DNA of 63,812 nucleotides, filler included, from an uncultured bacterium (GTDB lineage: Bacteria > CAZSTA01): assembly GCA_964609495.1 (NCBI GenBank). It is 3 parts of 3 records of this genome, joined end to end, with 100 filler letters (N's around TTAATTAATTAA, not from the genome) between each part and the next. Parts side by side here need not be neighbours in the genome. Positions count along the whole stretch, not along the records: positions 43,326 to 63,812 come from CAZSTA010000046.1; 2 more parts are not named here. The stretch is one strand, 5' to 3'. This document shows, piece by piece, positions 56,242 through 61,325 of this stretch. Position 1 is the stretch's first letter. The number at the start of each line of letters is the position of its first letter. The translations under genes and the position numbers were made by a program. A model generated the notes under the pieces. It saw nothing but the letters and a program-made list of their open reading frames with translations, made no database searches and was not told where the DNA came from.

Positions 56242-58521
56242 TCACTTACTCGAAATCTCTATATCTGCCGAGGTGTTAGCGGTAACCTTATCTCCTCTCT
56301 CATCGAAACCTCGAACTTCCAGCGAGTTCACCACTTTGCCTGGGCTGGTATCTCCCTTGATTCTTCCCTTGATCCTTATCTCTATCTCTTTTCCTTTGGG
56401 AAGAAGGGGAATATTCCACAGGATTATCATCTGCTCTGGCTCAGGTGTATCAGGGATTATCCTTCGGGAAGCACGATCATCACTGTTGTCCTCAACGAAT
56501 AGTATATCTTTTGATAAGATATCACTCACAGATATATTATGTATATGTTGTCTCCCCCTATTGATTAAAGTGATTATATAGACTATTCCATCTCCAGGGT
56601 GATAGGAGTTGGAAAGCGCCTTCTTTTTGACTTCAAGCTTTGACTTTGGTATCTCGATCGCTGCGCTAGCGGAGTTTTTATTGCTGGCTAAATTTCCCTC
56701 CTTGGATATAGACTCGACCGAGATCGTATTTACTATACCCTCCCTATCTATTCTGGGATCAACCTTGATGATAGCTGATATCTCGATCTTATCTCCGCTT
56801 GCTAAGTTTCCTAAACTCCAGAATATATTTCGTCCTACGACCGCTGAAGGTAAAGGATCGCTCGACATAAAGAAAACATCGTTGGGAAGCTCCGCTTTGA
56901 TCACGATTTGGCTTAATCCCTGGCCAGTATAATTCGTTATAATTATGGAGTATTTCTCATTGCGACCTGCTAGTAGAATTTCGTTCTCAAAAATTTGTTC
57001 TATGAGCAATATATTGGAGGTCATCAATTTGGCTGGAGTTCGTTCCTTCTCAGCTTCAACTTCGAATATTGTTCTCTCTTTTAAGGGAAGGGGAGATGTA
57101 ATTTGTTCGGGGATGAAGGGATTGGGGAAGCTGTCCTCGATCTGAGATAATTTATCCCCTATAAGCGAGGGGATATCTTTCTTCTCGGCGAGGAGAGGAG
57201 ATATAGCTCGACTTTTGGGGAGAGGTTGGATAGTCTTTCTCATTCGAGTAGGATAAGATCTTTTCTCCTCCCCTATTGGAGGGGATAACTCCCCTGAGCC
57301 AACCCTTAGGGCGTAACGGATTATGTACTCTTTGGAGGCAAGAGTATCTCTTGTCCCTTTAGAAGTTAAACTGCTAAGAAATTCATCGCTCCAAAGAGGA
57401 TAGATCACGCTCTTCTCCACACTTTTTAGAGGTGGATTTTCGAGGTTATCTTTCCTATCAATCTTCACTGGCTCGGTTAATTTATCTCGGAGAGGAGCGG
57501 ATATTATCTCTTTACCTATAGTAGATCGAAGCGCGGGTTTTATTTCCCTTACTTTGACCTTTATAACCTCTTTCAGCAGGGACTCTATTTCGATTTTTTC
57601 CCCTACCATCTTGGGGATTAGTGTTTGTATCCCACTTATAGATTCTACTAAAAGGGGCTTAACTTCACCTTCGCTCTCTATGATCTTTGCTCTAATCTCT
57701 AGGGGTTTAGAAGGCTCGACCTTCTTTAAGGCTGGCTTACTTACAGATGTTAAGCTAAGTTCAGATTCTTCTACTTCCTCCTTCTCCGCAAGGGAGGGTG
57801 ATCTCTCCTCAGCTTTTAGCGATTTAGGGGAAGGGATCCCTCCCTCCACCCTTCCTATATTAATTGTGGGAATATGCTCTAAGTGGGGTGGCTCTATGGG
57901 GAATTTTGCCTCTTGTTCCTTCATAATCATCTTAGGAGTCGAGATCATCTCCTCCGTTTCGCTCCTATCCGATTCTATCAGAGCGATAAGGGATAAAGCA
58001 GAGAAGTGATTAGGCTCAAGCTTTCTGAGGCGCTTGAGCCAATTTTTGACCTGAAGTAAATAATAGCTTTGACTTGGGGAGTTTTGCTCCAACTCCATCG
58101 CTCTTAGATATAGGGATAAAGAATACAGATAAGTGCTCTCTTTAACTCCTTCGTTGTCTTTGGCGGCTTTTTCCCAAGCCCCCCATCTCTCCCTTTCATC
58201 ATACTTCGTCGGATCATCGGTGGCAGTGAGCAGAATCTTCATAAAATCATCGCCTGCCCTCTCGAATTTTCCCTGGGAGAGAGCATCCAATCCTTGTTTA
58301 TACAGCTCGAATAGATCATTGGGTAAAGATCTCCCCTTAGCTAATTCCTCCTGATATCTCTCGATGGAGAAGGGGAATTGAAGGGAGATCTCTCCCTCCT
58401 CAGTTTGAGTTATAGCAGGCAAGTTAAATAGAAGAAGCAATATTAATATAACAAGCCGAAACTTACATTTAGGGGGAGGAATCCTCCCCTCTACCCCTCC
58501 TACTTTATTTATAGGTTTCAT
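56242..58521 (-). CDS. Secreted protein with a low-complexity linker and two DUF11-like Ig domains
   Basis: N-terminal hydrophobic segment; YSIIITN..AELP..WSLGNL and YIITLIN..SDIL..WNIPLL repeats. Confidence 0.7.
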   Translation of the reverse strand: MKPINKVGGVEGRIPPPKCKFRLVILILLLLFNLPAITQTEEGEISLQFPFSIERYQEELAKGRSLPNDLFELYKQGLDALSQGKFERAGDDFMKILLTATDDPTKYDERERWGAWEKAAKDNEGVKESTYLYSLSLYLRAMELEQNSPSQSYYLLQVKNWLKRLRKLEPNHFSALSLIALIESDRSETEEMISTPKMIMKEQEAKFPIEPPHLEHIPTINIGRVEGGIPSPKSLKAEERSPSLAEKEEVEESELSLTSVSKPALKKVEPSKPLEIRAKIIESEGEVKPLLVESISGIQTLIPKMVGEKIEIESLLKEVIKVKVREIKPALRSTIGKEIISAPLRDKLTEPVKIDRKDNLENPPLKSVEKSVIYPLWSDEFLSSLTSKGTRDTLASKEYIIRYALRVGSGELSPPIGEEKRSYPTRMRKTIQPLPKSRAISPLLAEKKDIPSLIGDKLSQIEDSFPNPFIPEQITSPLPLKERTIFEVEAEKERTPAKLMTSNILLIEQIFENEILLAGRNEKYSIIITNYTGQGLSQIVIKAELPNDVFFMSSDPLPSAVVGRNIFWSLGNLASGDKIEISAIIKVDPRIDREGIVNTISVESISKEGNLASNKNSASAAIEIPKSKLEVKKKALSNSYHPGDGIVYIITLINRGRQHIHNISVSDILSKDILFVEDNSDDRASRRIIPDTPEPEQMIILWNIPLLPKGKEIEIRIKGRIKGDTSPGKVVNSLEVRGFDERGDKVTANTSADIEISSK
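57826..57864 (-). repeat. Family A repeat in frame
   Basis: ATTAATATAGGAAGGGTGGAGGGAGGGATCCCTTCCCCT = INIGRVEGGIPSP. Confidence 0.8.
58471..58512 (-). repeat. Family A repeat in frame at the N-terminus
   Basis: ATAAATAAAGTAGGAGGGGTAGAGGGGAGGATTCCTCCCCCT = INKVGGVEGRIPPP; one mismatch to 37043-37084. Confidence 0.85.
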
Positions 58522-58936
58522 CTCAAATCAGGCACGAAGACCCCGACTGATTGAAAAGAAAATCAGTCGGGGAGGAGTGCCTATCTCCCTCCCTATTAAA
58601 AGCAGTTGATTTCTCAAAGGCCCTTGTGGTAGGGGAGGAGGGAACCTCCTCCTCCCCATGACAAGGGTTTTCCACTAATATAAAGTGGTTTCTCCACCTT
58701 TCGGTGGGTTAGAGCCTCATCGGGATTGTTAAGAGGGGTTTTTAAGCTCGACAGCACTGTTCCTACCTCACAGAACTGTTTAACCATCAAGCCACAGAGC
58801 GGAAAGCTTGAGGAGCACTCGCAGATGTGTATGTATCTCACCCTCTTAACTGCTCCTAACTTGCGTTAGGCCCCTAGTCAACCAGGGCCTGCTCTCGCAA
58901 GCCCCTACTGATTCTTAATCAGTAGGGGTTGTTGAC
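58522..58936 (-). mobile_element. Non-autonomous IS200/IS605 IscB-type element lacking iscB
   Basis: Matched subterminal hairpins CCCCTACTGATT..AATCAGTAGGGG (58902-58928) and CCCCGACTGATT..AATCAGTCGGGG (58541-58572); begins GTCAAC; followed by ATGAAA. Confidence 0.8.
58690..58936 (-). ncRNA. IscB-type omegaRNA scaffold (HEARO-like)
   Basis: GTCAACAACCCC..GGGGCTTG..GTTGACTAG..CAGTT..ACAC..TGCTCCTCAAGC..CTCTGTG..TTAAACAG..CAGTG..AACAATCCCGATGAGG; long-range GTTAAGAGGG/CCCTCTTAAC helix and CCTCA/TGAGG pairing. Confidence 0.85.
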
Positions 58937-58951
58937 CGCTATTATCACCTG

Positions 58952-59040
58952 TAAAAAAGGGGACTTTTGCAGTCAATAGGACTCAAGTGTTCTGGTAACT
59001 TTTGCTTCCAATAAAACTCAAGGTAAAAAAGTTCCCTTTA
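58952..59040. repeat. Compound family B repeat
   Basis: Two fused reverse-orientation B cores joined through TTCTGGTAACTTTTGC. Confidence 0.8.
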
Positions 59041-59045
59041 CGTAA

Positions 59046-61325
59046 TTATTTCTTCTCTAAGATAGCATCTATCTCCTGATCTTGAGCGGAGAGGATTACT
59101 GCTGTCCGTTTCCACTCCTTATATCCTTCTTTAACCAATCTAATTTCATAGCTTCCGGGGGCGAAGGAGGAGATTATAAGGTCGGTCAATCCTTGCAACT
59201 GACCATCTATGTAAATCTTAGCTCCTGGAGGAGTGGATTTTATGGTCAAGGAAGAGGTGGTTTTAGCTAGCTCTGCTCTTAGCTGAGCTACCTGTCCCGC
59301 CCGGATATCCACTGTTTGGCGCCAGCTGCTATATCCATTTTTGCTAACTCTGATTTTATACTTTCCCACGGGGAGATCACTTATAGTATAAGGAGTCTCC
59401 CCTTGTAGTTCTCCTCCTATATATACTTGAGCTTTACCTGGTTCACTGCTGATCTCAAGTCCACCTGTCTCTGGTATAAGTTGAACTTTCACTTCGTTAT
59501 CCCTATTGGCGATTACTCTCGTTCTCTTCTTCCAAGTCTGATATCCATCTTTAGCTAGCTCCAAGGTATAGTCCCCGGTGGGAATAGATTCGAGAATTAA
59601 GGGAGTAGTGCCTTCAATTTCTCCATCCAAATAAACTAGGGCAGATGAAGGAGTGGAGGTTATCATTAGTTTGCCAAAATGAGCCTCAAGACTTGCTTGA
59701 ATTCTGATTATATCATTAGCTTTTATAGTTACTACCTCCTTCCAAGTATCATATCCGCTCTTTATAAGCTTGATCCTGTAAACTCCAGGAGGGAAAGAGG
59801 TGAGGGATAGAGGGGTCTTTCCTCTATCCTCATCGTTTATATATATCTCTGCAGATGCAGGGATAGAATTTATAGATAACCATCCGAGTGCTTCTGATAG
59901 AGTGATCTCTACCTCGACTCTCTGTTGCTCCTCCACAGTTACAATATCTTCATACTCCTGATACCCCTCCTTGCTCAGTCTGAGTTTATATTGGGCGATA
60001 GGTATATTAGGAATAGTAAGAGGAGTTTTACCTTTGAGTTCTTCATTTAAGTAAACATTAGCCCCATAGGGAGAAGAGGTGACGAAAAGCGTTCCTTGAG
60101 CTCTCTCTAAAGTGATCTCTACTTCTCTGCTAAGAGCAGAGGGCATGAATAGCTTACTGATCCAACTTTTATACCCTTTCTTCGAGATTCTGATATCATA
60201 ATATCCCGTCTCAAGATCCCGGATGATCAGAGGAGTCATACCTTTGAAGTTTCCTCCGATATATACTTCCGCCTCTGCTGGTTTAGAAATAATCGTTAAT
60301 ATTGGTTCTGGTTCCTCTTCAGAGAGAGATAAGGGAATATCTAAGAGATTAGTCTTATCAGAGTGAACTTCAATCAACTTTTGCCAATCGTCGTATCCTC
60401 TTAAGCTCACCTTGAGGTGATGTTGACCTATTAGGACCTCCTCGATAGTGAGGGGAGTAGTTCCTTTTTCCTCTCCATCTAAATAAACCATAGCCTTATC
60501 TGGAGATGATTTTACCCTAATAGCCCCTTTGGGGATAGCTATCTCTATCCGTTTCGACTTAAGGGTAACTATGACCTTCCCCATTTCCCTGGGCTTTAGC
60601 GTGATCTCCTCGTTCCACTCCTCATATCCATCCTTAATCAATTTCACTTGGTGGGATCCGGACAGTATAGCATCGAGTTCAAGTGGTGTTTTCCCTTTTA
60701 GCTGTCCATCTAAGTAAACCTGAGCTTTATCAGGAGTAGATATAATAGCTAAAGAACTCACAATTTTTTCTCGTACTTGTTCAAATAATTTTATTATCTT
60801 AGGGGGATGATAGGTGGGATCTAGTTGTAGCGCTGGATCGATTTGGAGGCTGTTTTTGAAGGCCTCTTGCGCCTTATCGAAATCGTTTAATCCTATGTAA
60901 GTAAAGGCTAGATACTCATACGCCTCTACTAAGTCCTTTTTATCCTTTGGATTAAGATCTATCGCTTTTTTTAACTCGGTGATAGCCTTTTCGAATAAAC
61001 ATTGATAGTAGTAGGACTTTCCCAGACCCAGGTGGCCCGAGGGATGATCGGGGTCTAGGTTTATCGCCTCTTTGAAGCTGTTCTCTGCGTTCTCAAAATC
61101 GCCTTCGTCAAGATAGGACAAACCTTCTTTGATACTATCCTCATAAGTTGTGGCTTGAACAATTGGGGCAAGAGATAACATCACTAAGATAATCGGTATG
61201 AGGAAGCAAATTCCTGAACCGATTAACCTCTTCAAGCCGAAACCCAAGTTTCGGTTATTCGGCTTGCTTTGACTATCCCTCCTATATCTGAGAATCCCCC
61301 CTATAATTATCCCTTTATGACGCAT
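59046..61325 (-). CDS. Secreted TPR plus 8x PEGA-domain protein
   Basis: Signal-like segment, about 3 TPRs, then eight S.P..A.VY.DG...G.TP...G.Y.I...K.GY repeats. Confidence 0.9.
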   Translation of the reverse strand: MRHKGIIIGGILRYRRDSQSKPNNRNLGFGLKRLIGSGICFLIPIILVMLSLAPIVQATTYEDSIKEGLSYLDEGDFENAENSFKEAINLDPDHPSGHLGLGKSYYYQCLFEKAITELKKAIDLNPKDKKDLVEAYEYLAFTYIGLNDFDKAQEAFKNSLQIDPALQLDPTYHPPKIIKLFEQVREKIVSSLAIISTPDKAQVYLDGQLKGKTPLELDAILSGSHQVKLIKDGYEEWNEEITLKPREMGKVIVTLKSKRIEIAIPKGAIRVKSSPDKAMVYLDGEEKGTTPLTIEEVLIGQHHLKVSLRGYDDWQKLIEVHSDKTNLLDIPLSLSEEEPEPILTIISKPAEAEVYIGGNFKGMTPLIIRDLETGYYDIRISKKGYKSWISKLFMPSALSREVEITLERAQGTLFVTSSPYGANVYLNEELKGKTPLTIPNIPIAQYKLRLSKEGYQEYEDIVTVEEQQRVEVEITLSEALGWLSINSIPASAEIYINDEDRGKTPLSLTSFPPGVYRIKLIKSGYDTWKEVVTIKANDIIRIQASLEAHFGKLMITSTPSSALVYLDGEIEGTTPLILESIPTGDYTLELAKDGYQTWKKRTRVIANRDNEVKVQLIPETGGLEISSEPGKAQVYIGGELQGETPYTISDLPVGKYKIRVSKNGYSSWRQTVDIRAGQVAQLRAELAKTTSSLTIKSTPPGAKIYIDGQLQGLTDLIISSFAPGSYEIRLVKEGYKEWKRTAVILSAQDQEIDAILEKK

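Follow-up and report, generated by a model that had tools for sequence, protein, structure and literature searches.

How a bacterial gene is translated when an insert lies exactly between its Shine-Dalgarno (SD) sequence and its start codon, and whether such an insert could serve its host, are the questions raised by a 415-bp element at positions 58522-58936 (minus strand) of the 63,812-nucleotide stretch of DNA analysed here (the window). Several contigs joined by N make up the window, and the whole element falls within contig C46. A first-pass annotation had read the element as a protein-less IscB-type omegaRNA unit and had proposed that its excision could act as a translational on/off switch for the gene behind it. 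The first of these readings holds; as to the second, the element looks like a tolerated parasite, an ordinary selfish insertion, and not a regulatory switch.

A protein-less member of the IscB transposon group

Judged from its sequence, the element is a protein-less derivative of an IscB (ISC, IS200/IS605) element. The Rfam model HEARO (RF02033) matched positions 58708-58936 of the minus strand with 115 bits (gathering score 83, E 2e-24) over all 211 model positions (1-211), so that the covariance-model check suggested in the first-pass annotation returned a match above the gathering score and bore out the full omegaRNA-like scaffold described there. HEARO RNA is reportedly the omegaRNA of IscB. 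Folding of the whole 415-nt element gave z = -6.7, and none of 100 shuffles folded equally well. Comparison of the scaffold among 10 genome copies, whose sequences are related, revealed double changes at 23 of 59 pairs; as far as such a comparison of sequences goes, these show a conserved fold, not current function.

The boundaries of the element are those of its sister copies. Its 5′ end (GTCAA at 58936) is common to all 19 two-ended copies in the genome, and its 3′ end at 58522 recurs in five other copies, one of which carries iscB. From the sequence, the fold and the listing of ends, a subterminal hairpin was assigned to each end: the right-end hairpin (58902-58928, minus strand), which is also the first stem-loop of the omegaRNA, and the left-end hairpin (58541-58572, plus strand). 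Their 12-bp stems are identical at 11 of 12 positions, with one compensated pair, as the earlier description of two near-identical terminal hairpins had it. The element has subterminal hairpins at both ends and neither terminal inverted repeats nor a target duplication, as is typical of the ISC / IS200-IS605 group. Beside the hairpins lie a putative right-end DNA guide, CAAG (58898-58901, plus strand), for the terminal TGAC at 58933-58936, which is identical in all copies with a separate right end, and a putative left-end guide, AAGA (58537-58540, plus strand), whose first base A misfits the TCAT target, unlike in the sister copies. The pairing register of both guides is one that we assume after the work on IS608.

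The element encodes no IscB, and 5′ and 3′ remnants of iscB alone remain. In alignment with the intact iscB of contig C31, the 5′ remnant (58662-58681, minus strand) has ATA in place of the start codon, a change common to five protein-less copies including this one. Its GKPL piece (58662-58673) matches the GKPL codons of the intact gene across a 19-nt deletion, which confirms the suspicion that this fragment was left by a nuclease gene; it is off the frame of the old start. In all copies a small hairpin (58668-58684 in the window) carries the iscB start codon in its loop; the changes seen in its stem from copy to copy are compensatory, and it may belong to the 3′ end of the omegaRNA.

The element is also mosaic: over the first 62 nt it is 90-94% like one group of copies, whereas the core is 92% like another. 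As expected of a PATE-like element, it has no protein gene, its ends are common to nuclease-bearing elements of the genome, and several dispersed copies exist. It is an internally deleted, non-autonomous element of the ISC / IS200-IS605 group, PATE-like and reduced to its omegaRNA. We put the probability of the full reading, in which such an element arrived in the way proposed below and is now a tolerated parasite, at about 80%.

The target or TAM of the element, ATGA(A) at 58517-58521 (minus strand), coincides with the start codon of the downstream gene. An N|ATGA target is given in Kapitonov 2016, and the plus-strand flank, TTCAT, is identical to the GstIscB motif of Meers 2023, which supports the earlier equation of TAM and start codon. 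Under the IscB omegaRNA architecture set out in Meers 2023, the predicted guide segment is the 5′ flank (58937-58952, minus strand), SD included, in agreement with the suggestion that the guide is the ribosome-binding site (RBS). No perfect 14-nt target with TAM for this predicted guide occurs in the assembly, where one site with two mismatches was found. In a search that required xTGA, the 4-nt target by the left end was ATGA in five of the six copies of this end type and GTGA in one, and the flanks were unrelated.

Sister copies and mobility genes in the genome

The genome holds at least 19 complete (two-ended) copies of 46 to 1509 bp, with four end types and with ATGA (10), ATAA (7) or GTGA (2) as targets; such dispersal implies past mobility. 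HEARO matches number 12 over the cut-off and two below it. iscB occurs at six places, two full-length genes passing the NCBIfam IscB model NF040563, and the iscB element on C31 agrees with the 58522-58936 element in the terminal 12 nt, after which ATGA follows. Two models found a single Y1 tnpA, a truncated gene into which a HEARO element is inserted; the assembly, 99% complete, is in 349 contigs, and a repeated tnpA copy could be missing from it. The proposed search of the genome for a nuclease or tnpA with matching ends thus succeeded for iscB and failed for tnpA, of which it returned only the broken gene.

The interrupted tnpA (L001, G000 C343:1227-1640) has a HEARO/iscB element immediately behind its GYY codons, the family having inserted into its own helper. 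The intact iscB element on C31 (L037, G000 C31:4103-5587) lies before rlmN and has lost its left-end hairpin, and its iscB stop codon is provided by the target and overlaps the rlmN start. A 415-bp sister copy (L005, G000 C5:35051-35465, minus strand) lies between rpmD and single-copy rplO; when rejoined, this site has a stop/start overlap and an SD, both of which rplO lacks while the element is present, and the rpmD frame extends 22 nt into the element. Single-hairpin minis of 46-54 bp that fuse two element ends were seen at L034, L035, L036 and G000 C25, C41, C73 and C175, one such mini lying on the start of a hisJ-family gene. The genome (G000) also has four tnpB-domain matches.

Separation of a host gene from its Shine-Dalgarno sequence

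Directly after the 3′ end of the element, an ATG at 58521 opens a 759-aa ORF (56242-58521, minus strand), the host gene, which has two C-terminal DUF11 stretches by domain match and an N-terminus that, after discounting a genome-wide repeat, reads by eye as a signal peptide. An orphaned SD motif, AGGTGA (58945-58950, minus strand), lies 8 nt from the element's 5′ junction. Pairing of the genome's own 16S tail at the host start amounts to -9.8 kcal/mol with the element removed in silico and to -2.6 kcal/mol with the element present (called-gene median -9.3), bearing out the claim that removal places an SD 8 nt before the ATG. The element end holds no replacement SD (-2.6 kcal/mol), and no outward promoter or terminator was found on the minus strand between 58400 and 59200. 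The filled start is also predicted to be the more structured one, with a mean unpaired value of 0.45 as against 0.60 when empty.

We accept the host ATG as the start because no in-frame alternative start with an SD was found in the host gene before codon 94, because the N-terminus that follows resembles a signal peptide and because the ORF carries DUF11 domains. The start assumed in the first-pass annotation stands. Membership of the host ATG in the neighbouring repeat was ruled out, since copies of that repeat agree only from ~10 nt downstream.

Two short repeats were observed at the locus. A ~40-nt purine-rich hairpin repeat, which we take to resemble palindromic elements that insert into coding DNA, occurs twice in frame in the host gene (57827-57866 and ~58470-58510), the first of these copies being absent from a related strain; 18 of its 29 genome copies lie in called genes, 11 in one frame. 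At ~58955-59040 the window has a tandem pair of a second, ~45-nt inverted-repeat element with ~90 genome matches, one copy of which is in frame at the pyrD start and another within the C82 omegaRNA element.

A search of 41 genomes gave no kin of this genome nearer than domain level and, outside this genome, only weak DUF11-region matches; a metagenome scan for the empty site yielded one weak locus among 156 candidates. Contigs of four out of 22 sequencing runs, none of the 22 being listed as RNA, contained no joint that skips the element, all of them being short contigs that break at repeats, and among the records shown no independent contig had at least 31 letters on both sides of either junction. 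The empty site was seen in none of these sequences. We infer the exact junction, and insertion at this spot, from the sister copies.

Insertion at start codons in this genome and in related loci

The position on a start codon is not peculiar to this copy. Of the 10 ATGA-target copies, seven coincide with a called start, and three precede one by 17-51 nt. The genes hit at their start are the 759-aa DUF11 gene, rplO, a Nudix gene, rlmN, pyrD, amaP and a hisJ-family gene, of which rplO, rlmN and hisJ are single-copy in the assembly and have the same element layout. A same-strand gene lies upstream of all 10 copies, and in the rejoined rpmD-rplO and pyrK-pyrD sites the ATGA is a stop/start overlap.

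ATGA, which is reportedly also the motif of AwaIscB, is the commonest gene start in this genome (1141 of the 3290 genes called with a heuristic caller). Starts make up 2.8% of all ATGA; the share rises to 20.7% when coding DNA is set aside and to 36.5% when only ATGA between co-oriented genes are counted, and the probability of seven in 10 at starts is 1e-9, 0.001 and 0.033 under these three nulls, respectively. A null limited to sites at most 60 nt from a start (62% starts, P 0.43) removes the enrichment; it is defined by the observed feature and we do not rely on it. The seven ATAA-target copies, which cannot sit on an ATG, persist equally well. Given the excess that is left when co-orientation is allowed for (P 0.033), something besides survival may contribute to the clustering at start codons.

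An outside check used the best 80 of 102 related iscB loci. Of these, 21 were left out before parsing, nearly all with a match ending well short of the C-terminus, and 59 were parsed. The left end was found in 47 of the 59, and seven were dropped (two duplicates, two misparses, two weak hairpins and one contig end), leaving 40. An ORF of at least 80 codons starts at the target in 28 of these 40 relatives, drawn from the best 80 of 102, as against 105 of 522 flank ATGA; the parser required ATGA or GTGA and several loci come from one genus, so that the comparison tests what follows the target and overstates independence. Among start-landed relatives with both ends, 15 of 19 have an SD in the 5′ flank. 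The counts in this genome and in the relatives support the expectation that an ATGA TAM biases the family towards start codons. In two relatives (L074 and L104) the reading frame in which the iscB match ends continues without a stop into the downstream host gene (by eye frr-like and ruvA-like, respectively).

Translation of the host gene behind the element

The host gene is most likely translated at a lower level through SD-independent initiation, and weak initiation of this kind most likely also serves SD-less genes such as rplO. In E. coli, SD motifs affect the efficiency of initiation and not the choice of start (Saito 2020). An SD of -5 or better precedes 86% of called genes, in part by construction of the gene caller; this usage, taken with the more structured filled start, means that SD-less initiation may be poor, which fits poorly with rplO.

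Rescue by translational coupling, in which ribosomes that finish ORFs in the 3′ part of the element, at most 9 nt from the ATG, would re-initiate there, is a possible, if doubtful, alternative. This end type does have stops in all three frames at most 9 nt from the ATG, where two mini-ORFs of the 58522-58936 copy end; a predicted 50-codon mini-ORF in the old iscB frame (58523-58675, minus strand) stops 1 nt before the host ATG, with a poorly spaced SD. All five protein-less copies of this end type have a GTG 14 nt before the ATG and in frame with the target TGA, and on C31 the iscB stop overlaps the rlmN start. In five protein-less copies, however, the iscB ATG has become ATA, the GTG at -154 is 16 nt away from its SD, that of the GTG at -14 is buried in the end hairpin (unpaired 0.11-0.34), and the rplO copy has not retained the long mini-ORFs. 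The relatives show no enrichment of such features at starts, where 19 of 28 loci have either coupling or a replacement SD, as against 7 of 12 at non-starts (Fisher P 0.72). Coupling is compatible with SD-independent initiation and perhaps contributes to it.

Loss of the SD and the more structured start could also mean that the insertion shut off a dispensable secreted-protein gene whose decay is still to come. The protein has no known essential role and is nearly without homologs, a protein search having given one distant homolog. We consider such silencing unlikely: the ORF is intact, and 11 of 19 listed codon changes (the differences being listed in part) are synonymous relative to a related strain, which may or may not carry the element. 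Even the best-matching parts of the copy, moreover, are 6-8% divergent from the nearest sisters, which suggests that it is not brand new.

It is rather improbable that start-targeted omegaRNA elements are made harmless or switchable by an undescribed route, be it RNA bypass or TnpA excision with IscB homing that cycles the RBS. The sharpest test of such a route is rplO, which is severed from its SD and from the rpmD overlap and has no replacement signal.

The RNA-level form of this idea, in which the element splices out or its folding brings the upstream SD next to the ATG, would explain why the single-copy rplO ORF is intact behind a 415-bp copy with neither an SD nor a good coupling ORF, and why nine of 28 start-landed relatives have neither rescue feature. 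IStrons offer a precedent for splicing of transposon RNAs (bioRxiv 10.1101/2023.11.20.567912). Yet no group I or II intron family matched positions 57500-60000 at E up to 1 (Rfam), the 5′ end pairs internally in 10 of 10 aligned copies, and ensemble pairing between the two ends is about zero in the 58522-58936 copy, with 2.6-3.3 expected pairs in two sister copies; bypass is therefore very unlikely.

A switch that serves the host would have TnpA excision restore the SD-ATG junction (ON) and IscB-driven homing reinsert the element (OFF). Removal of the element does rebuild an SD of median strength, both end hairpins are intact, the genome has intact iscB genes, and scarless excision of omegaRNA-only elements is published (Meers 2023). 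The machinery argues otherwise. The only tnpA found is broken (in an assembly of 349 pieces), and excision requires a cognate guide, whereas the left-end guide here is mismatched. By eye, nine TCAT/TCAC-flanked copies have G, and seven TTAT-flanked copies have A, at the fourth position before the left hairpin; this rule is kept by 16 of 18 copies, the exceptions being the 58522-58936 element and C225, each with A and TCAT. The mismatch probably reflects decay of this copy, which would now be hard to excise; shared as it is by two copies, it might instead be tolerated.

In the published assay, excision occurred at 0.7% and integration at 2.5e-7 (Meers 2023), so that the process runs almost entirely in one direction, and IscB would be led to the excised allele by the guide of the element itself. 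The host genes, which encode a ribosomal protein, an rRNA methylase, pyrimidine and histidine enzymes and a secreted protein, are unrelated and share no regulatory theme. The same layout at single-copy rplO, rlmN and hisJ, where an OFF state would be costly, argues that loss of the SD is tolerated and does not amount to a full OFF state. The switch proposed in the first-pass annotation is thus unsupported, and we hold it to be highly improbable.

Least probable is an assembly chimera, in which two flanks from different copies were joined through the repeat: the element is mosaic and no independent contig spans it, but each of its parts differs from all other copies in the assembly, the core-to-3′ transition is covered, with 8 differences in 193 nt, by a contig of a separate study, and the rejoined flanks yield a normally spaced SD.

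Proposed origin

Following the published mechanism, a Y1 transposase acting in trans would have inserted the element, or its ancestor, 5′ of an ATGA. Insertions within genes would be purged, and IscB elements would require read-through transcription from an upstream gene for guide production. With ATGA the commonest start, such purging and such a need for read-through would pile copies up on start codons within operons, a pattern that is seen here and whose cause we infer. The omegaRNA may still load on an intact IscB of the genome and, aimed at the empty allele, cause the element to be retained. The host gene has lost its SD without replacement and would now rely on lower, SD-independent initiation, perhaps aided by short element ORFs that stop by the ATG.

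Comparison with known systems

Among known systems, IStrons (Zedaveinyte et al., bioRxiv 10.1101/2023.11.20.567912) resemble the 58522-58936 element in being transposons with a structured guide RNA that interrupt host expression signals; unlike them, it has no group I intron core (Rfam, E up to 1), lies outside coding sequence and comes with no evidence of splicing. It shares with RF02033 HEARO RNA, the IscB omegaRNA of Aliaga Goltsman 2022 (PMC9755519), a full-length match above the gathering score, and differs from such loci in that no ORF follows.

Closer are the ISGst5-related PATE-like elements of Geobacillus stearothermophilus (Meers 2023, bioRxiv 10.1101/2023.03.14.532601), which are likewise protein-less, with similar left and right ends, TTCAT by the left end, a flank-derived guide (predicted here) and co-orientation with the upstream gene. 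According to that work, IscB draws its guide from the flank upstream, iscB elements have the orientation of the gene before them, some elements lack a protein gene or consist of an omegaRNA alone, and GstIscB uses TTCAT by the left end. It also reports that IscB cuts the empty (donor) joint, by which the element is retained in its model, and that excision, which needs a cognate guide, is far more frequent than integration. The Geobacillus genome has an active TnpA, unlike the broken one found here, and the excerpted text of the paper does not report a start-codon position for these elements.

The ISC N|ATGA transposons of Kapitonov, Makarova and Koonin 2016 (PMC4810608), in which insertion 5′ of ATGA is given for ISC1-1_MA, ISC2-1_HM and ISC2-1_MS, share with the element a 5′-GT terminus, insertion just 5′ of ATGA, subterminal hairpins, the lack of a target duplication and the lack of a transposase of their own; the 58522-58936 copy differs from them in being without iscB. 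The word "codon" is absent from the main text of that paper, where start landing is not discussed, and outside supplements, Weinberg 2009 and Altae-Tran 2021 we found no published account of it. Both ingredients are already published, the N|ATGA target in Kapitonov 2016 and elements with an omegaRNA alone in Meers 2023, and the target rule, purging of coding insertions and the need for read-through together predict the start-codon pattern.

Landing on start codons is in this sense a side effect of a published target rule and follows from known parts. Its consequence is that elements with an ATGA target survive mainly at gene starts, where they routinely split genes from their RBS and have guides made of RBS sequence. 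What these known systems leave as a useful remainder is a cheap, testable question, namely how a gene of the rplO type is translated behind such an insert.
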